Source of the DNA: Mobula hypostoma
Taxonomy: Eukaryota
Assembly (NCBI RefSeq): GCF_963921235.1
Contig: NC_086097.1
Span: 27,592,001-27,656,000, forward strand
DNA length: 64,000 nt
Reading direction: 5' to 3'
The translations under genes were made by a program, and so were the position numbers. Under the pieces are notes generated by a model. That model searched no databases. It was not told the origin of the DNA and saw nothing but the letters and a program-made list of their open reading frames with translations. Shown here in pieces: positions 8,395 to 64,000 of the stretch (its first letter is position 1; each line of letters opens with the position of its first letter).

Positions 8395-11000
8395 TGGCTA
8401 TATTTCATTAGTAGTTTGAGAAGCTTTGGTATATCTTCAGAAACACTCGTAAATTTCTACAGATGTACTGTGTAAATCATTCTAACTGTCTACAGGTACA
8501 TCACCGTCTGGTATGGGGGGGTGGGGAGGAACTACTGCACAGGATCGCAGTAAGCTGCAGAGAGTTGTAAACTTAGTCAGCTCCATTATGAGCTCTAGTC
8601 TCTGTGGTATCCAGGACATCAAGGAGGGATGCCTCAAAAAGGTGATGTCCATCATTAAGGACCCTTGTCACCCATGTCACGCCCTGTTCTCATTGCTACC
8701 ATCAGGTAGGAGATACAGAAGCATGCAGGCACACATTCAATGATTCAGGAACAACTTCTTCCCCCACCACCAGGTCTTAGGTCCTCAGAACATCCAACTT
8801 TCTTTCACCTCACCATCCCTGAACACTCCAAACCTCCTTTCTCCTCAGACACTTCCAACCACCTTCCCCCTCCGATCCCAGCTCTCATCTATGCCAGGTC
8901 TTCACCATTCCTTCTGACCCCCTCTCTGAGGCAGAACGTCCTGTCCTCAGTAAGGGCCTCACCTTTGTCACTCTGCACCCACACCTCAATGAGTTCTGTA
9001 CCCACCATGGCATTGAGATCTTCTCTGGCCACCTCCAACTCAGAGCCTACTTCTTTGGCAAAGACTCTCCACCCCGCACTGATGACCCCGTCTCCTCTTC
9101 CTGGATACCATGCCCTGGTCTTCTGCCTGCTCTGGGCCTTTTCATTGCCAGCTTCCAATTGGATTTTTTCAATGATTTCAAGTTCCCTGGCTCTCATCAT
9201 CTTACTTTCACTACGGATGTCCAGTCCCTATACAGATCCATCCCGCACCAGAAAGACCTCAAAGCTCTCCATTTCTTTCTGGATACCAGACCCAACCAGT
9301 TCCCCTCCACCACCACTCTCCTCTGTCTAGTGAAAGTTGTCCTCAGTCTTAATCATTTCTTCTCTGGTTCTTCCCACTTCCTTCAAACAAAAGGAGTAGC
9401 CATGGGCATTCACATGGGTCCCACCTATGCCCGTCTTTTTGTCAGCTACATGGAACAGTCTATGTTCCAAGCCTACACGTGTCCACCCCCCAATTTTCCT
9501 ACACTACATCAACAACTGCATTGGTGCTGCTTTCTGCACCCACGCAGAGCTTGGCGACTTCATCAACTCTGCCTCCAACTTCCACCCTGCCCTCAAATTT
9601 ACCTGGTCTATTTCTGACACCTCCCTCTCCTTTCTCAATCTTTCTGTCTCTATCTCCGGAGTCAGCTTAACTACTGATGTCTATTATAAATCCACAGACT
9701 CTCACAGCTACCTGGACTATACCTCCTCCCACCATGTTACTTGTAAAAACGCTATCCCCTTCTCTCAATTCCTCCGTTTCTGCCACATCTGCTCAGGATG
9801 AGGCCTTTCATTCTTAAATGAAAGAAATGTCCTCCTTTTTCAAAAAAAAACCGCTTCCCTTCCTTTGCCATCAACGTTGCCCTCAACTGCATCTCTTCCA
9901 TTTCACGCACATCTGCTCTTACCCCATCCTCCCACCACCCTATCAGGAATAGGATTCCTCTTGTCCTCACCTACCACCCCACTAGTCTCCACACCCAGCA
10001 CATAATTCTCTGGAACTTCTGCCATCTCCACCGGGATCCCACCACTAAGCACATCTTTCCCTAGCCCCCACTTTCTGCTTTCCACAGGATCGCTCCCTAT
10101 GTGACTCTCTTGTCCATCCATCCCTCCCCACTAATCTCCCTCTTGGCATTTATCCTTCCTCTGCCCCTATACCTCCTCCCTCATTACCATTCAGGGCCTC
10201 AAACAGTCCTTCCAGACTCACTTCACCTACAAGTCTGTCGGGGTCATTCTACTGTTTTCAGTGCTCCCGGTGTAGCCTCCTGTTTATTAGCAAAACCCGA
10301 CATAGATTGGGTGACCACTACGCCGAGCACCCATTCTCCATCTGCCAGAAAAAGCGCGCTCTCCAGAGGCTACCCATTTTAATTCCACTTCCCATTCCCA
10401 TGTGCTAACCACGATCTCCTCTACTGTTGTGATGACACCTCCCCCAGGTTGGAGAACACCTGTGTAGCCTCCAACCTGATGGCATGGACATCAACTTCTC
10501 GAATTTCCAGTTATGCTCCCCCCACTTCACCATTCACCATCTCCTTTTCCTTCTCACCTTATCTCCATGCCTGCCCATCGCCTCTCTCTGGTGCTCCTCC
10601 CCCTGGTTTCACCTATCACCTTGTGCTTCTCTCTCCCCTCCTGCCACCTTGTAAATCTACTCATCTTTTTTTCTCTAGTCCTGCCAAAGGGCCTTGGTTC
10701 CAAATGTCGACTGTATTTTTTTCCATAGATGCTGCCTGGCTTGCTGAATTCCTCCAGCATTTTGTGTGTGTTGCTTCAATTTCCAGCATCTGTAGATTTT
10801 CTCTTGTTTGTGACAGCTTCTTCCCCTCCGCCATCTGATTTCTGAATGGACATTGAACCCATGAACACTACCTCACTACATATATATCTTGTTGTAATTC
10901 ACAGTTTTTTCTCTCTAGTATTATGCATTACATTGTGCTACTACCACAAAGTCAACAAATTTCATGAAATATGCCAGCGATATTAACCTGATTCTGATAT
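8395..11000 (+). mobile_element. Rex1/Babar LINE 3' fragment (8395-8764 and 10813-11000) split by a PLE
   Basis: KLQRVVNLVSSI...IIKDPCHPCHALFSLLPSGRRYRS is the Rex1/Babar ORF2 C-terminus. The sequence resumes after the PLE. Confidence 0.8.
8765..10812 (+). mobile_element. Penelope-like retroelement (RT plus GIY-YIG, frameshifted) with 3' hammerhead-bearing terminus
   Basis: DVQSLYRSIPH, FLQTKGVAMGIHMGP, FHPALKFTW, YYKSTDSHSYLDYTSSH and IPFSQFLR are PLE RT/thumb motifs. A GIY-YIG remnant lies at about 10220-10510 and a degenerate hammerhead at about 10677-10713. TSD aca(a/g)cttcttcccc at 8751-8764 and 10813-10826. Confidence 0.9.
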
Positions 11001-11355
11001 ATTACCCTGCCAATGCTACTTGATAAACATTCATTCTCTGAGATGCATCTGCAGCTTGTTAGCAAGGCAACTAATGTTAGTATTGACTGAAAGACATTAA
11101 TTTGAGCTTGCCGATGTATATTCAGTGTGATCTTATTTCCGTGAAAGGCAATGAGAGTATTTACCCACAAGCTGCATGAATCTGCAGCTACTTATTGCTT
11201 CAACTGTTGACTTTAGTGATTTAATTTCAAAGTATTGATGCAATTTTGGAATGCGCAGGAACATTCCCAGTTTCCTAATCAGATAAATAGTTATGTAGAA
11301 TAACACCAACTTAGGTAGCATCCCAAAGATCAAGGGTTCAAACCCTTCCGTGACT

Positions 11356-11908
11356 TACACTCAGTGGCCACTTTATTAGATACCTCCTGCCTCTTATAAA
11401 GTGGTCACTGAGTGTATGTTTGTGGTCTTCTGTTGCTGTAGCCCAGCCACTTCAAGGTTCGACATGCTGTGCATTCAGAGATACTCTTCTGTACACCACT
11501 GTTGTAATGTGTGGTTGTCTGAGTTACAGTTGCCTTCCTGTCAGCTTGAAATAGTTTGGCCCTTATCCTCTGACCTTATTAACAAGGCATTTTCCCTCAC
11601 AGAACTGCCACTAACTGGATGACTTTTTGGTTTTCACACCATTCTCTGAAAACTCTAGAGTTGGGTGTGCATGAAAATCCCAGGAGATCAGCAGGTGTTG
11701 AGATACCCACCTCGTCTGACACCAACAATCGTCCCATGGTGGTCAAAGTCAATGAGATCACATTTCTTCCCCATTGTAATGTTTGGTCTGACAACTGAAC
11801 CTTTTTACCATGTCTGTATGCTTCTATGTTGCTTTCGCATGACTGGCCAATTAGATATTTGCATTAATAATCAGGTCAAATATAACTAACAAAGTTATCA
11901 TTGAATAA
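11356..11908 (-). mobile_element. Tc1/mariner-derived non-autonomous element with a doubled (palindromic) terminus
   Basis: TA-cactcagtggccactttat...ataaagtggtcactgagtg-TA at 11356-11416. The minus ORF fragment ADLLGFSCTPNSRVFREW matches the Tc1 transposase N-terminal HTH. The right TIR is degenerate at about 11885-11908. Confidence 0.8.
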
Positions 11909-14605: not shown

Positions 14606-17600
14606 CTGTCAGACAAACAGCACAGGTGTTGGGCTGCTGCATCTGGTGATATTGAACCACAGGTTCTTCAGAAGTAAAGAATGAAGCATACAAGTTGGTG
14701 GTTATGTCCATTTTTATTAAATGTTAAAATAACAAAGAAAGAAGCGAAGAAAAATAAATTGTGGTTGCCTCAAACTCAGATCAGAGATGAAGCATATCCC
14801 ACTGATAAAAGTTAGTCTGATTCAAGTGGCATGGCACCTACTGCAGAAAAACTGAGAAGCTTCTCGAAAACACATAGTCAGCTATACTACAATTACCTGA
14901 AAATTTACAATTACCTGAACAGTTACATGTATATGCTGTAGGTGATTACATAAAAATTATAAGCAAGAATTTTCTTATTTTTTGTAGTTAAAACTACAAC
15001 AAAATTACTAGAAAAGTAACAATTCTACACCCTAATCCACCAGGGTGTAATTTGTTCAGTCTTTCTCCCCTTTTTGCATTTGCGATATCTTATAGATTTC
15101 AGAGCTTTCTCTCTGCCGCACAATTCAAAGGTTTACATTGAGATCACTCTTGCTGGGTTGGTAGCATACGTAAATCACAATTAACATCAGAGCAGAGCCA
15201 GACATGAATGTCAGGCTTGCAGTGTTACGGGGATTAATTACATTAAGATACATTTAATTTGAGCTGCAGCCAACAAGAGTGCTTAGTGCAGTACTTCTAC
15301 CTAGTCATGCTGTTGCTGCAGCTTGCTGCTATGTCGTTTCTTTGTTCATGCTTCAGTACACAATAACATTACAGGAGGGCTGCGTTCCTACAAACCCAAA
15401 TTTATTGTGCATTTCAATAATGTAAAGCCACATCATCTGCGGGAGGACCCAGAGGAAACCCACATAGCCATGAGGAAAACGTACAAACTCCTTATAGACA
15501 GCAATAAGAATCAAATCTCAATCTTACAGCTGACGCTGTAAGGCAATTGCACTAACCACTATGCTACTGTGCTGCCGGTGCAGTAGCTTTGCAGATGGAT
15601 AAGGTGGTAAAGAAGGCACATGGCATGCCGACCTTCATTGATAAAGGCCATCTTAATGCACTCTTACTGGTAATGACTGTTATTCACAAATGCAAAAGAC
15701 AGTAGACTCTTGCTCATTCCTGGCTATTGATGCTAGTCTACATCATCCATTAACTCTACAGCCCCTAAGTTCTAAGGGTTAGTTAATAGCCCTCTTGAAA
15801 AGATCGAACAAGAAGTGCCAATGTAACAGTGTACACATCCATCGGAAAACCCAAAATTTCAGGTTACAACTAAACTATTTTACTCAATGTTTCTTGCAGA
15901 TGCAAGTCTAGCTGAATTTGACAATGAAGCATTACTGCAGCCGCCAACAATGATCCAGACAGGTGCTCTTCTCCAAGTTTATTACAATGCCCAATCTCTT
16001 CTGACCAGACAATTGTATTATTAATGAAAGTAAAATTCAGCAGTTTCTTTACAATTTATATCTCTGTATTATTTATTTATTTTCCACTAGTATTATTATT
16101 TTGCATGATTTGTCTTCTTTGCACATTGGTTGTGTGTCTGTTTTTCATAAATTCTATTGTACTGTATTTCATTATTTTCCTGTAAATGCCTGCAAGGAAA
16201 TAAATTTCAAGGTACTAAATGTTAACATATTGAGTGCCTAAGACTTTTGTACAGCACTGTGGTAATTTTATGTTTAAGATCAATTGCACAGATTACAGGA
16301 AAGATATGTTCCTATAAAAAGGAATGACGGGGATAGAAAGACAAGAGAGGTGATGAATTTAGTCAAGAAGAAAAAAAAGGATGTAAAGCTTTGGTATACG
16401 GAGGAATTTAAGCTGGGGGGTTATATGGGAGGCAGAGTTTAAGGGTCGGCACAACATTGTGGGCTGAAGGGTCTGTACTGTGCTGTACTATTCTATGTTC
16501 TATGTTCTATAAGTCAGGATAAAAAAGAAGCATATGAGGAATATAAAGAAGCCCGAGAAGAACTAAAGAAAGGAATTAGGAAAGCCAGGAGGGGCTATGA
16601 AAAGTCCTTGGCAAGTAGGATTAAGGTGAGTTCCAAGGCATTCTACACATGCATCAAGAGCAACAGAATAGCTAAGGCAAGGTGGAAGCACTCAAGGATA
16701 AAGGAGGGAACATTTGTTTGGATGCAGATAATGTGAGGGAGGTACTTACTGAGCACTTCAGTATTTACCAACGAAAAGCATAAGGAGTACCAGGAGATCA
16801 GTGCTGAATAGATAAATATGTAACAGCATTTAGAGGTCAACAAGGAGGAAGTGTTGGGCCTCCGAATGAGTATTAAGGTGGATATGTCTCCAGGGTCTGA
16901 CAGAATTTACCCCAGGTTGTGGAAGGAGGTAAGAGATGAGATTGCTGAGCTCTCAACCAGTATCTTTGTGTCCTCTCTAGCAGCAGGCGAAGTCCCAGAG
17001 CACTGGCGTGTAACTAATGCTGTACCTCTATTTAAGAAGGGAACTAGGGAAAATCCTGGGAACTATAGACTGGTGAGTCTCATGTCAGTTGTAGGGAAAT
17101 TGCTGGAGAAAATTCTTAGGAATAGGGTATATGAGCATTTGGAAATATATCAGCGTGGCTCTGTGCAGGGCAGATCATGCCTTACCAACTTGACTGAGAT
17201 TTTTGACAAGGTGATGGGAGAGATTGATGAGGGTAGGGTAGTGAATGTTGTATACACAGACTTTAGTAAGGCTTTGACAAAGTCCTCATGGGAGGATAAT
17301 CCAGAAGATTAAGATGCAGGGGATAACAGGGAATTGGCTGCTTGGGTTCAGAACTGGCTTGTGCATAGAAGACAGAGGGTAGTGTTTGAAGGGACTTATT
17401 TGAGCTAGATGTCTATAAATTAGAAAATAAATATACCAAATATACTTTATATAAGTGACCTGGATGAAAATGTAGATACGCAAACACGAGGAAATCTGTA
17501 GATGCTGGAATTTCAAGCAACACACATAAAAGTTGCCGGAGTACGCAGCAAGCCAGGCAGCATCTCTAGGAAGAGGTACAGTCGACGTTTCGTCAGGACT

Positions 17601-17760
17601 AACTGAAGGAAGAGCTAGGAAGAGATTTGAAAGTGTGAGGGGGAGGGGGAGATCCGAAATGATAAGAGAAGACAGGAGTGGGAGGGATGGAACCAAGAGC
17701 TGGACAGGTGATTGGCAAAAGGAATAAGGGAGGATCATGGGACAGGAGGCCCAGGGAGAA

Positions 17761-18796
17761 ACATAGAAACATAGAAAATAGGTGCAGGAGTAGGCCATTC
17801 GGCCCTTCGAGCCTGCACCGCCATTTATTATGATCATGGCTGATCATCCAACTCAGAACCCTGCACCAGCCTTCCCTCCATACCCCCTGATCCCCGTAGC
17901 CACAAGGGCCATATCTAACTCCCTCTTAAATATAGTCAATGAACTGGCCTCAACTGTTTCCTGTGGCAGAGAATTCCACAGATTCACCACTCTCTGTGTG
18001 AAGAAGTTTTTCCTAATCTCAGTCCTAAAAGGCTTCCCCCTTATCCTCAAACTGTGACCCCTCGTTCTGGACTTCCCCAACATCGGGAACAATCTTCCTG
18101 CATCTAGCCTATCCAATCCTTTTAGGATTTTATACGTTTCAATCAGATCCCCCCTCAATCTTCTAAATTCCAACGAGTACAAGCCTAGTTCATCCAGTCT
18201 TTCTTCATATGAAAGTCCTGCCATCCCAGGAATCAATCTGGTGAACCTTCTTTGTACTCCCTCTATGGCAAGGATGTCTTTCCTCAGATTAGGGGACCAA
18301 AACTGCACACAATACTCCAGGTGTGGTCTCACCAAGGCCTTGTACAACTGCAGTAGTACCTCCCTGCTCCTGTACTCGAATCCTCTCGCTATAAATGCCA
18401 GCATACCATTTGCCTTTTTCACCGCCTGCTGTACCTGCATGCCCACTTTCAATGACTGGTGTATAATGACACCCAGGTCTCGTTGCACCTCCCCTTTTCC
18501 TAATTGGCCACCATTCAGATAATAATCTGTTTTCCTATTTTTGCCACCAAAGTGGATAACTTCACATTTATCCACATTAAATTGTATCTGCCATGAATTT
18601 GCCCACTCACCCAACCTATCCAAGTCACCCTGCATCCTCTTAGCATCCTCCTCTGCCGCCCAGCTTCGTGTCATCCGCAAACTTGGAGATGCTGCATTTA
18701 ATTCCCTCATCCAAGTCATTAATATATATTGTAAACAACTGGGGTCCCAGCACTGAGCCTTGCGGTACCCCACTAGTCACTGCCTGCCATTCTGAA
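17761..18796 (-). mobile_element. Young 5'-truncated CR1 nested in the PLE arm
   Basis: Almost uninterrupted ORF2 C-terminus (ORF 17853-18773, with one small deletion after FADDTKLGG). The (catagaaa)n 3' microsatellite is at the low-coordinate end. Confidence 0.92.
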
Positions 18797-19456
18797 AAAG
18801 AAAGAAAAGGGGGAGTGGGGGAAAACCCAGAGGATGGGCGAGGGGTATAGTGAGAGGGACAGAGGGAGAAAGAGGAGAGAGAGAGAAAGAATGTGTGTAT
18901 ATAAATAAATAAATAACGGATGGGGTACGAGGGGGAGGTGGGGCATTAGCGGAAGTTTGAGAAGTCAATGTTCATGCCATCAGGTTGGAGGCTACCCAGG
19001 TAAAGACAAAGCCACACTCAGGTTGGAGGACATCCATGGCCTCCTCTACTGTAAAGATGAAGCCACACTCAGGTTGGAGGAACAACACCTTATATTCCAG
19101 CTGGGTAGCCTCCAACCTGATGGCATGAACAATGACTTCTCAAACTTCCGCTAATGCCCCACCTCCCCCATGTACCCTATCCATTATTTATTTATTTATA
19201 TGCACACATTCTTTTGTTCTCGCTCTCCTTTTTCTCCCTCTGTCCCTCTCACTATACCACTTGCCCATCCTCTGGGCTTCCCCCTCCCCCATTTCTTTCT
19301 CCCTAGGCCTCCTGTCCCATGATCCTCTCATATCCATTTTGCCAATCAACTGTCCTGCTCTTGGCTCCATCCCTCCCCCTCCTGACTTCTCCTATCATTT
19401 CGGATCTCCTCCTCCCCCTCCCACTTTCAAATCTCTTACTAGCTCTTCTTTCAGTT

Positions 19457-19493
19457 AGTCCTGACGAAGGGTCTCGGCCCGAAACGTCAACTG
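19457..19493 (+). ncRNA. Minimal type-I hammerhead ribozyme motif in PLE terminus
   Basis: AGUC-CUGACGA-A-GGGU(CUCG)GCCC-GAAA-CGUC^AACUG. The conserved core is complete, with a 4-bp stem II and a GUC cleavage triplet. There is one mismatch at the base of stem I. Confidence 0.75.
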
Positions 19494-20572
19494 TACCTCT
19501 TCCTAGAGATGCTGCCTGGCCTGCTGCATTCACCAGCAAATTTCATGAAAATGTAGACAGGTGAGTTAGTAAATTTGCAAGACTGCTGGAGTTGTGGATA
19601 GTGTAGAAGACTGGCAAAAAATATAGAACGATATAGATCAGTTGCAGATATGGGCTGAGAGATGGCAGATGGAGTTTAATCCAGATAAATGTGAGGTTTT
19701 ACACCTCAGTCGGGTAAATGTAAGGAGGCAGTACATTGATAAGGGCAAGGCCTGCAAGGAGATCTTGGGATCCAAGTTCATAGCTCCTTGAAAATGGTTA
19801 CACATGTTGAGAGGGTGCAGGAGGCTTATGGAATGCTTGCTTTTACTAGTCGAGGCATTGAGTTTAAAAGTCAGGAGATTGTGTTGCAATTTTATAAAAC
19901 TCTGATTAGGCCACAGCTGGAGTATTGCATACAGTTCTGGTCATCCCACTATAGGAAGGACGTTGAGACTTTGAAGAGGGTGCAGAAGAGGTTTACCAAG
20001 GTGCTATCTGGTTTAGAAGGCATGTGCTATCATGAGAGGCTGGATAAACATGGGCTGTTTTCTCCAGAGCAATGGAGGCTGAGGGGAGATCTGATAGAGG
20101 TTTACAAGATTATGAGAGGCACAGAGATTATGAGAGTGGACAGAGAGTACCTGTTTCCTAGAGTTGAAATGTCTAATACCAGAGGGCATGCATTGAGATG
20201 AGAGGGGATAGGTTCAAGGGGGATGTGAGTGGAAACCTGGAATGCACAGGTAGAGGCAAATACATTAGAGGTTTTTAAGATATGTTTAGATAGGCAAAGG
20301 ATGTAAGGAAGATGGAGTGACATGGACATGGTGTAGGTAGGAGGGATTAGTGTCTGGATGTTTTAGATTTGCTTTTTAGCTGGTTCGGCACAACATTGTT
20401 GGCTAAATGGCCTGTTCCTGTGCTGTATTATTCTATGTATTGCACTGCACTGTGGCTGCAAAAAAAACCAAAACAAATTTCATGAAATATGTGAGTGATG
20501 ATAAACCTGATTCTGTTATGGTTCCTTATTGTGGACTGAGAATGGGAAGGGCCAGGGAGAGGGGAATAATAG

Positions 20573-39975: not shown

Positions 39976-40320
39976 GCATATTAATTAATTAATTAGTGCA
40001 AAAGGAGAGCAAGAGTAGTGAGGTAGCATTCATGGGTTGGTTCATTTTCCATTCAGAAGTCTAATGGTGGAGGGGAAAAAGCTGTTCCTGTAATGTTGAG
40101 TGTGTGTCTTCAGGCTCCTGTCTCTCCTCTCTGATGGTGGTATAAGAACAGAGCATGCCCTGGTTGATGGGGTCCTTAATGAGGGATGCTACCTTATTGA
40201 GGCATCACCTTTTAAAGGCATCCTCAGTGGTGGGGAGCCAGTGCCCATGATGGAGCTAGCTGAGCTTGCAACCGTCTGCAGCTCTTTCTGATCCTCTGCA
40301 GTGGCCCCTCCATAACCCTA
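39975..40320 (-). mobile_element. Rex1/Babar 3' fragment
   Basis: Reverse complement of the IIKDP.HP.HALFS.LPS.RR region. Further fragments are at 42195-42720(-), 43030-43385(+) and 45270-45715(+). Confidence 0.75.
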
Positions 40321-53785: not shown

Positions 53786-54813
53786 AAAATTATTCCCACT
53801 TGCCTTCATAGGATATTATTTTTCTATGCCTTGTCTATTTAAGAATATGTCCTTATGCCTGATTCCACAGTTCACTTTAGCATTCCAACTATCAATCACT
53901 GACTCTGTGAAATAACTTTCCCCTTAGATCCCTTTTTAAATTCCTCACACTCGTCCTATACCTATGTCCTCTTATTTATGATATATCTACAATGAATTCC
54001 GCTATCTATCCTATCTATGCCCCTCAGAATCCTATAACCTTATTCTGCTTCTTCTTTCATCACTTCCTTCAGGAAGTATGCACAAAGACCCTTCATCACT
54101 TCCTTTCTAGTCCTATGAAGGGCCTCAGCCCAAAACATTGACTGTTTATTCCCCTCCACACATGCTGCCTGACCTTCTGAGTTCCTTCAGTGTTGCAGTA
54201 TTAAAAACTCTCTCCAAAATCTCCATGCCCACAAACTTCAAACAGAACAAACCAGAAGCACAAACAAAGGTATATGAAGCCTGAGGTACAAAGCCTGCAA
54301 ACAGCTGGCAAGATGCAGTTTCAGTCCCTGAATTAGGTTATCAGGAGTATTCAGATTTTCCCGGCCCAAGCTGCAGCTTCTGTTAACATTACCACTTAAT
54401 GGACAATTAAGCAGTAAGAAACATTAGCATCTGAGAAAAAGCTCTTGCATTATATCTTACATGGTGGTACAAAAGTACGTCGTCACTGTCAATTAAACAG
54501 GTCCTATTTCATCGTCCTGAAAATAGAATGGCCCAGTTATTGTATAACTGTACAATTATTTATACAAACTACCAATCTACTATGGCAGTGATAATGAATA
54601 AGATATGTTATACGATAAAGATTACAGTATTATAGCCTGCAAGATAGTATGTATTTTTCTGCTATAATGCAGCCTAATTGCTGTAAGTAATTGCTAAATA
54701 ATTGCTGTAAATAGGGAAAAACCTTTTTACGGAAAAAACACCAGGGTGACATCAGCTTTGTTAGCTTTCCCACGTCCCTCAGTCGCTCACTCATCACACG
54801 CCCACTCACTCAC

Positions 54814-58065: not shown

Positions 58066-58872
58066 TTCCAATAAGGAAAAAATATAAATGCATATATATC
58101 CTGGCTGCGAGGTTTGCTGAAGCTACTTGAGAGAGTATAAACTAGCTTTGCAGGGGGCTGGGAACTGGAGCCCCAAATCAATAAGGGAAGGATTAGACCA
58201 GAGGTATTGAAAGGCAAAGTCAAAATAACAGGAATGATGGGCCAGATAGCTTTAAGTGTGTTTATTTTAATGCTAGGTGTACTATGGGTAAGAGTGATGA
58301 ACTTAGAGCATGGAACAGTGATTACTGAAACTTGGTTGCGAGTGGAAGGAAAGGGTGATTAACGTACCAGGTTTTTGAAGTTTCAGAAAAGATAGAGGAG
58401 GAGGTAAAAAGAGGGTGTGGAGTTGCACTACTAATCAGGGACAATATCACAGCTATACTCAGAGACATAATGGAGGGTTCAGACACTGAGTCCATTTGGG
58501 TGAAACTCGGGAATAGGATGGGTGCAACCACACTGATGGGATTGCACTACAGACCCCCTAATAGCCACTGGGACATTGAGGAACAGATATGTAATCAGAT
58601 TTTAAAAATGTGACAAAATAATAGGGTTGTTGTCATGGGGGATTTCTACTTCCCTAATCTAAACTGGGACCTTCTTAGTGTAAGGGGTTTAGATGGGGCT
58701 GAATATATTAAGTGTATCCTGGAAGGTTTCTTAAATCAATATGTGGCTGGTCCAACCAGAGCTGGGGCTGTACTGGACCTGGTGTTGGGTAATGAACTTG
58801 GCCAGGTGACTGACGTTTCAGTGGGTGAACACTGACCACAACTCCTTTACTTTCAGGATAGCTATATACTTG

Positions 58873-59082
58873 CAAACAACAGGAATTCTGCAGATGCTGG
58901 AAATTCAAGCAACACACATCAAAGTTGCTGGTGAACGCAGCAGGCCAGGCAGCATCTCTAGGAAGAGGTGCAGTCGACGTTTCAGGCCGAGACCCTTCGT
59001 CAGGACTCCTGATGAAGGGTCTCTGCCTGAAACATCGACTGCACCTCTGGCCTGCTGTGTTCACCAGCAACTTTGATGTGTG
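58873..59082. mobile_element. 210-bp palindromic PLE-derived mini-element with two opposed hammerhead motifs
   Basis: Exact 14-bp TSD tagctatatacttg at 58859-58872 and 59083-59096. Minus arm 58873-59007, plus arm 59008-59082. Confidence 0.92.
58971..59007 (-). ncRNA. Minimal type-I hammerhead ribozyme motif (best-preserved copy)
   Basis: AGUC-CUGACGA-A-GGGU(CUCG)GCCU-GAAA-CGUC^GACUG. Stem I AGUC/GACU, stem II with a G-U closing pair, palindromic ACGU stem III. Confidence 0.8.
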
Positions 59083-60383
59083 TAGCTATATACTTGGATA
59101 GGTATGGTCCAAGTTAAATTGGAGTAGGGTAAATTACAAGGACATTAAGTAGAAACTAAGAAGTATTAATTGGGAACACCTTTTTTCTGATGTCCACATC
59201 AGACTTGTGGAGGGTGTTTAAAGATCAATTGCACAGAGTACAGGAAAGGTATGCTCTTGCTAGAAGGAAGGATGGGGATGGGAAGATAAGAGAACATTGG
59301 ACATCCAGAGAGGTGATAAGTTTAGTCAAGAAGAAAAAGAAAAATAATGTAAAGCTTCAAATGTAAGATCAAACGAAGCATACGAAGTATAAAGACACCA
59401 GAAAAGAACTAAAGAAGGGGATTAGGAAAGGTAGGAGGGCCCATGAAAAGTCCTTGGCAAGTAGGATTAAGGTGAATCACAAGGCACTCTATACGTACAT
59501 CAAGAGCACAAGGATAACTAGGGAGAGGGTGAGACCACTCAAGGATAAAGGGAAGAACATTTGCTTGGACGCAGAGAATGTGAGTGAGGTACTTAATGAG
59601 TACTTTGCTTCAGTATTTACTAAGGAAAGGTGGATAACTCCCCAAGTCCTGATGGAATTTTCCCCAGGTTGTTGAAAGAGGTAAGAGATGAGATTGCTAG
59701 GCCCTTAACAAGTATTTTTCTTTTACCCTCTCTAGCCACAAGCAAGGTCCTAGAGAACTGGCGAGTGGCTATTGTTGTACCTCTATTTAATCCTGAGAAC
59801 TACAGACCAGCGAATCTCACGTCAGTTGTTGGGAAGTTGCTGGAGAAAATTCTGAGGGATAGGATATATTGAGCATTTAGAAACTCATGGCCTAATCAGG
59901 GAGAGCCAGCATGGCTTTGTGCGGGGCAGGCCGTGCCTTACCAACTTGATTGAGTTTTTTGACAAGGTGACAAGAGAGATTGATGAGAGTAGGGCAGTGG
60001 TTGTTGTCCACATGGATTTTAGTAAGCTGTTTGAAAAAGTCCCTCATGGGAGGCTAATCCAGAAGATTAAGATGCATGGGGATCCGTAGTGAAATGTCTG
60101 TTTGAATTCAGAACTGGCTTGTGCATAGAAGACACAGGGTAGTAGTTGCAGGGACTTACAAACGTTTGTACTTGAGATGAAAATCTATAAATAGTATATA
60201 AATATACTAAATATACTGTATATAAATGTCCTGAATGAAAATATAGATTGGTGAGTTAGTAGAGTTATGCCGAGACTGGTGGAGCTGTGGATAGTGTAGT
60301 AGACTGGCAAAGAATACAGTACGGTATAGATCAGTTGCAAATCTGCGCTGAGAAACGGCAAATGGAGTTTAACCCAGATAAAT

Positions 60384-63754: not shown

Positions 63755-63912
63755 GTAACAAACAAGGGAAAATCTGCAGATGCTGGAAATGTGAGCAACA
63801 CACACAAAATGCTGGAGTAACTCAGCAGACCAGGCAGCATCTAGGAAAAGAGTACAGTCTATGTCTTGGGCCAAAACCCTTGAAGCCTGCTGAGTTCCTC
63901 CAACATTTTGTA
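63755..63912. mobile_element. Short inverted pair of PLE termini
   Basis: The minus arm ends in a degenerate hammerhead (cagtctatgtcttgggccaaaacccttg). The plus arm gcctgctgagttcctccaacattttgt follows. Confidence 0.7.
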
Positions 63913-64000
63913 TGGAATTGGTCAGGCCAGTTAGACATGCCAAGGTTGAAATGAGACACCACATTGTTTCCATACTTAAATTGTTAGGTTTTCCCAGGAG

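Follow-up and report, generated by a model that had tools for sequence, protein, structure and literature searches.

The locus at positions 58873-59082 of the window (the whole 64-kb stretch of DNA that was analysed) raises the question of how a 210-bp non-coding insertion came to carry two hammerhead motifs back to back. The initial annotation had offered two answers, namely an extreme truncation and inversion product of a Penelope-like element (PLE), or a member of a retrozyme-like family that is defined by its ribozymes and mobilised in trans. The analysis described here identifies the locus as a maximally truncated inverted PLE insertion, which is a known kind of product, and not as a retrozyme.

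Insertion and Target Site

The outer limits of the insertion were examined together with the sequence on either side. The following features were assigned.

58859-58872, no strand: left copy of the target-site duplication (TSD), AT-rich (A/T at 10 of 14 positions), exact repeat of 59083-59096
59083-59096, no strand: right TSD copy, of which the initial 5 nt agree with PLE positions +96..+100 at 4 of 5 bases
58242-58872, plus strand: target, a decayed LINE endonuclease region whose reading frame picks up again past the right TSD

The direct repeat of 14 bp that flanks the 210-bp insert is exact (14/14 identical), and the pair coincides precisely with the edges of the foreign sequence at 58873-59082, which bears out the earlier description of the insert and its TSD. 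Exact 14-mer repeats spaced 50-400 nt apart occurred just three times in the 64-kb window; in the shuffle control, 17 of 20 shuffles yielded none, and 4 repeats were found when all 20 were summed. In translation, the left flank read ...TDHNSFTFRIAIYL (ending in FRIAIYL) and the right flank AIYLDRYGP, so that the overlap in the LINE frame consists of the duplicated codons only. A stop-free part of the left flank showed a weak similarity to the Pfam family Exo_endo_phos (endonuclease/exonuclease/phosphatase family) with an E value of 0.0095, below the cut-off. The earlier reading of the target as a CR1 endonuclease region holds in so far as a LINE frame is split at the duplicated codons, accompanied by this weak Pfam match; that the LINE is of the CR1 type is our assumption from its motifs.

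Two Unequal Arms from a PLE Terminus

For the internal structure, positions were numbered from +1, the first base of hammerhead stem I. The insert was divided into two arms and a central junction.

58873-59007, minus strand: left arm, the terminal 135 nt (+1..+135) of a PLE pseudo-LTR, assigned by identity to other termini in the window
58873-58912, minus strand: PLE tail of 40 nt (+96..+135), present in the left arm only, assigned by alignment of the arms
59007-59082, plus strand: right arm, +3/+4..+95 of the same terminus, tail-less, with a 17-nt deletion (+43..+59) and 4 substitutions
59005-59007, no strand: inversion junction, with C 59006 at the centre and T 59007 fitting either arm

The junction contains a 1-nt microhomology within an imperfect overlap of 3 nt. 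In BLAST comparisons within the window, the left arm was 93% identical to 19457-19547, 90% to 17481-17591, and 79% to 10677-10810, and the outer end of its tail recurred at 17481, 63759, and 10810. Apparent second palindromes in the BLAST list were dropped as single termini that match both arms. Both arms of the insert have C at +38; of the 15 aligned arms, 2 carry this base, 12 carry T, and 1 carries A, which argues that the two arms of the insert derive from one source. All four substitutions of the right arm lie at CpG sites (4/4). The four substitutions and the deletion are confined to the right arm (59007-59082), and the left arm (58913-59007) retains its 5 CpGs in the paired region. The proposal that the insertion consists only of two inverted PLE termini was confirmed by the identities of 79-93%, with the qualification that the arms are unequal: the tail is on the left only, and the 17-nt deletion and 4 substitutions are on the right.

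The terminus at 10677-10810 closes a decayed reading frame (8823-9801), for which Pfam RVT_1 gave an E value of 1.4e-4, below the cut-off. A search for relatives of this RT frame returned 5 matches among 754 candidates, the best being two bamboo-shark proteins with 57-59% identity. Judging from its RT motifs, the PLE presumably belongs to a Neptune-like clade. The whole copy at 8768-10812 is a 5'-truncated PLE with decayed RT frames and the terminal repeat; it sits in an older repeat that is also present at 40015-40311, and its TSD (8751-8767 and 10813-10829) matches at 14 of 17 positions. Public contigs with at least 85% identity to the stretch 19031-19600 numbered 139,040, 84,378, 59,593, and 9,648 in the four runs (4/4); these figures are not a copy number, and they indicate that the element is highly amplified. 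In both subfamilies, hammerhead stem I is preceded by a pyrimidine tract ending in AG (19440-19459 and other termini), which resembles both a 3' splice site and an initiator.

The insertion therefore possesses what defines a PLE unit, that is, terminal-repeat arms, an inverted 5'-truncated copy arranged head to head, a 40-nt tail at one end, and a TSD. It is not an autonomous PLE, as it comprises two termini only, without an RT or GIY-YIG endonuclease ORF.

Hammerhead Motifs and Predicted Folding

The two motifs were parsed on their respective strands.

58972-59007, minus strand: minimal type I hammerhead motif, parsed pair by pair, with the predicted cut between 58976 and 58975
59005-59040, plus strand: decayed hammerhead motif that retains CUGAUGA and GAAA

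The conserved core (CUGANGA, GAAA, NUH, and a bulged base before stem II) is present in both arms. The minus-arm motif comprises a stem I with 4/4 pairs, CUGACGA, a bulged A, stem II, GAAA, and the self-complementary ACGU; the base of its stem II is a G·U instead of the usual G10.1-C11.1 pair. In the plus-arm motif, stem I forms three of its four pairs and has a C·C mismatch at the other, and the 4-mer of stem III, ACAU, is not self-complementary. Because ACAU is non-palindromic, the plus-arm motif cannot form the dimer stem. Measured against the criteria of PMC4209133 (a helix I of 4-5 bp and a palindromic 15.2-16.2), the minus arm qualifies and the plus arm does not. The G10.1-C11.1 pair, a typical feature that lies outside the descriptor of PMC4209133, is replaced by G·U in both arms. 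The same C>T change, giving G·U at 10.1-11.1, accounted for 16-57% of the contig depth in four runs. The initial annotation had spoken of two hammerhead ribozymes; what stands is one motif per strand, near-intact on the minus strand and decayed on the plus strand, and the term ribozyme is a statement at the level of the motif that applies to the minus arm only.

The proposed check against the Rfam hammerhead models was negative, with no hammerhead family among the 9, 39, and 3 matches of the three scans (3/3). Sub-threshold Rfam matches, mostly to microRNA hairpins, were set aside as generic. Elsewhere in the window, an unrelated 67-bp palindrome at 11353-11419 likewise had only a sub-threshold microRNA match in Rfam.

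The claim that the whole RNA can fold into a long hairpin was upheld for both strands, with predicted energies of -146.6 and -144.1 kcal/mol and z scores of -17.0 and -18.8 (200 shuffles each), well outside what chance would give. Enforcing the hammerhead fold within the insert cost 46.1 kcal/mol on the minus strand and 49.3 kcal/mol on the plus strand. The cost was 44-48 kcal/mol in three partial transcripts, 4.5 kcal/mol in the lone left arm, and 9.9 kcal/mol in the copy at 19457. In the predicted fold of the minus-strand RNA, the 40-nt tail lies outside the hairpin. Since the two motifs occupy opposite strands, the antisense of a motif precedes that motif in the transcript of either strand, and the prediction is that this antisense sequesters the motif in the hairpin. 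From these folding models we infer that the 210-nt insert would not self-cleave and that its motifs are probably inactive passengers. The locus is a reason for caution: where a palindrome bears one hammerhead motif on each strand, mutual silencing is the prediction, and the pair does not amount to a retrozyme. In both arms the copied sequence extends across the predicted cut site, which implies a template that was uncleaved at this position.

Inversion Junctions in the Window and in Public Contigs

Four inverted PLE insertions were found in the window, and their junctions were compared.

58873-59082: the insertion described above, junction +1/+4
17481-19547: longer inverted PLE insertion, tail on the left only, right arm ending at +88..+91, junction about -355/-405
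63759-63914: short stub of an older subfamily, left arm +135..+11 with tail, right arm +63..+92/+95, junction +11/+63
about 1632-1815: palindromic stub of an older subfamily, junction -2/-6, near the 5' edge of the hammerhead

A further candidate, a short inverted stretch at about 54087-54099, was ambiguous and is not counted among the four. The insertion at 17481-19547 has an exact TSD core of 13 bp (17464-17476 and 19545-19557). A LINE is nested in this insertion (about 17762-18798), 19001-19030 forms a short tandem restart, and stem II of its left-arm hammerhead lacks 15 nt. The TSD of the stub at 63759-63914 is doubtful (8/10), and none was found for the stub at about 1632-1815. In two of the four insertions (17481-19547 and about 1632-1815), the right arm starts upstream of the end of the left arm and hence is not a fold-back copy of it. 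The tail-less arm ends at +88..+95 in all three insertions that bear a TSD or a tail. At these three tail-less ends the TSD starts with a short match to the element (4/5 at 59083-59087, 3/3 at 19545-19547, and 3/4 at 63911-63914), a hint of microhomology-assisted priming at the inner start site.

According to the initial annotation, inversion junctions unique to each locus would speak for independent truncation events and a shared junction for a family. The four junctions in the window are all different (4/4, n = 4), which on this small sample speaks for independent events. Public contigs were also searched for joints, for which they were aligned to a single arm; run X1 was saturated. Among the joints listed (15 of 162), no opposite-strand joint at 19457-19460 was present, and the joint of the 58873-59082 locus itself was likewise absent. 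Each of the 15 joints listed was represented by one contig per run, with a depth of at most 181 compared with approximately 7-14 for single-copy-like contigs, and one of them, 19056/19470, changes strand. These contig joints argue weakly against a large family that shares this junction. A joint from 19129 to 19457, located exactly at +1, occurred in 4/4 runs from three organisms at single-copy-like depth and is probably one old shared locus. A search with the palindromic-junction pattern yielded 0 matches in viral contigs and 3 in metagenome contigs; the latter were rejected as unrelated hairpins whose agreement is limited to the short pattern itself. No match to the single-motif pattern was found in prokaryotic genomes or in viral contigs, which is what a vertebrate repeat would lead one to expect.

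The position of the junctions is not random. Two of the four junctions in the window lie within 6 nt of +1, and 3 of the 15 joints listed (of 162) fall at -3..+4. In the DNA runs X1, X5, and X9, +1 was the largest left loose end among the rows listed (24 of 2,324), with 458, 435, and 340 contigs, respectively, an agreement of 0.38-0.40, and a median loose length of 91-133. It was not among the 6 loose ends listed for run X15, a run that is only presumed to be RNA, and the joints listed for X15 did not show GT..AG ends. The loose-end signal at +1 is confounded by the variable pyrimidine tract upstream and by the older subfamily, whose sequence departs at this very base.

Origin of the Insertion

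Whatever the mechanism, the insertion is very likely a one-off PLE stub, and it was probably made by twin (two-strand) priming on PLE RNA, followed by early stops and end-joining. In such a course of events, the PLE endonuclease would nick an AT-rich site with a stagger corresponding to the 14-bp TSD. The 3' end of the plus strand would prime at the outer start at +135 and that of the minus strand at the inner start near +95, with strand assignment and order of priming set by comparison with the system described in the accessible part of PMC11167929. This would leave the tail on one side, where the anatomy places it. Both cDNAs come to an end where the hammerhead begins on its 5' side (+1 and +3/+4); they may have stopped there and been joined through 1-3 nt of microhomology. 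The CpG differences and the 17-nt deletion of the right arm would be later damage.

The part of the initial annotation that described an extreme PLE truncation and inversion product is supported by the PLE-terminus arms, the one-sided tail, the TSD, and the differing junctions in the window. Both the stub as such and its two-strand priming are favoured by arms that match the terminus closing the decayed PLE RT frame, by the combination of a one-sided tail with an inverted 5'-truncated partner as in published PLEs, and by the like anatomy at 17481-19547 and 63759-63914. For two-strand priming in particular, 2 of the 4 right arms start upstream of the left-arm end, which is impossible by simple fold-back, and with the PLE protein PAc both strands are extended from two start sites in the RNA, one on either side of the tail, with no need for hammerhead cleavage (PMC11167929, as far as accessible). 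On the other side, initiation in the accessible part of PMC11167929 occurs without target homology, whereas the right junction here has a 4/5 match. The four substitutions and the deletion all lie on one arm, a skew that simple decay predicts weakly, and the sample comprises just 4 junctions, 2 of them within 6 nt of the hammerhead 5' edge, and a contig test with 15 of 162 joints listed.

Copying by fold-back would account equally well for the C at +38 in both arms and for the nearly perfect centre. Here a cDNA that ended at +1 would have snapped back with a loop of 3 nt and been extended on itself as far as +95, with the 4/5 match then serving to join it to the target. The almost perfect centre and the rare C at +38 common to the two arms speak for it, and self-priming has been proposed for palindromic PLE junctions (PMC3846280, in the section available). 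We nevertheless consider a stub formed by fold-back unlikely, though a serious rival for this copy, since 2 of the 3 other inverted insertions have right-arm sequence upstream of the left-arm end, and the stop at +88..+95 in 3/3 tail-less arms matches an RT start site, for which fold-back requires an extra assumption. A non-autonomous palindromic family, defined by its ribozyme and mobilised in trans, could draw on the tail outside the predicted minus-strand hairpin, to which PLE protein could in principle bind, on the clustering of junctions by the hammerhead edge (2/4), and on the existence of non-autonomous PLE derivatives (PMC8557442 and bioRxiv 10.64898/2026.07.22.740005, both in their accessible parts). 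Yet the four window junctions differ, no opposite-strand joint at 19457-19460 was found among the joints listed (15 of 162), and the motifs are antiparallel, one of them decayed and both predicted to be sequestered, so that the retrozyme-like alternative of the initial annotation is very improbable. The least probable account is a longer inverted PLE insertion that lost its centre through palindrome instability. A longer inverted insertion does exist nearby (17481-19547), and the 17-nt deletion means that the hairpin has undergone editing, but a loss that leaves a near-perfect palindrome would presumably not relieve the instability, and the still exact TSD suggests that little time has passed.

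It is conceivable, though doubtful, that the turn, where stem I follows the pyrimidine tract, is the real end of the PLE RNA and that the stubs are paired strong-stop cDNAs that ran off the RNA 5' end on both target strands. The joining of such cDNAs would have preceded the template jump by which a pseudo-LTR is normally built, and the stubs would be frozen intermediates of PLE integration. This explanation is encouraged by the 2 of 4 junctions at most 6 nt from +1, by +1 as the top left loose end listed in 3/3 DNA runs, and by the 3 of 15 listed joints at -3..+4. Against it, the loose ends are confounded by the older subfamily and the pyrimidine tract, and short inverted matches could favour joining at this place without an RNA end. 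If the stop at the hammerhead edge is indeed the RNA 5' end, the stubs would be a genomic read-out of how the inverted ends and pseudo-LTRs of PLEs form.

Comparison with Known Systems

Among the papers listed in searches of the open-access literature, none dealt with a palindromic hammerhead family mobilised in trans or with 5' stops at the edge of the hammerhead. A retrozyme consists of head-to-tail tandem units whose ribozymes share one polarity, and it releases monomers and circles (PMC7229834 and bioRxiv 10.64898/2026.07.22.740005, accessible parts). Like animal non-LTR retrozymes, the insert is non-coding, PLE-derived, and a few hundred bases long, and it has a type I hammerhead motif. 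Unlike them, it is single and head to head, with one motif per strand and a predicted self-antisense structure. It thus lacks the two or more head-to-tail units with hammerheads of the same polarity that characterize a retrozyme, and with antiparallel motifs no monomer can be excised as in the tandem elements.

Dual minimal hammerheads on opposite strands, approximately 100-700 bp apart, have been attributed to truncated PLEs in the accessible part of PMC4209133, which also places the end of an intron in D. virilis at the 5' end of helix I. The minimal hammerheads of PLE pseudo-LTRs described there share with the insert a short helix I, a bulge before stem II, a palindromic 15.2-16.2, and the placement of two motifs on opposite strands. 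The present motifs differ from those duals in that they abut without a spacer, carry G·U for G-C at 10.1-11.1, and include a decayed plus-arm motif. Cleavage of minimal hammerheads as dimers is attributed to Luense et al. in the available part of the review PMC6765202.

A close biochemical parallel is PAc (Poseidon of Anolis). In vitro, it cuts both strands of a preferably AT-rich target and extends them on uncleaved RNA; its two internal RNA start sites bracket the tail, and hammerhead cleavage is not needed (PMC11167929, accessible part). The insert agrees with PAc in the two RT start sites around the tail, the extension of both strands, the AT-rich target, and the uncleaved template. It differs in presumably belonging to another PLE clade, and the accessible part of PMC11167929, an in vitro account, describes neither inverted products nor clustered 5' stops.

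The pattern that fits best is that of PLE insertion units, in which an inverted 5'-truncated copy is combined with a one-sided tail of 30-40 bp (PMC8557442, legend to Fig. 2; Pen2a_Av in PMC3846280; PMC2377424, Fig. 1C; each as available). The insert has the head-to-head termini, the 40-nt tail on one arm, the short TSD, and the palindromic junction of these units. It differs from them in that no ORF sequence lies between its arms, which makes it the short extreme of the pattern. As such, the insertion is a tidy, short example of what has been published for PLEs, of little consequence in itself in a genome that is full of them.
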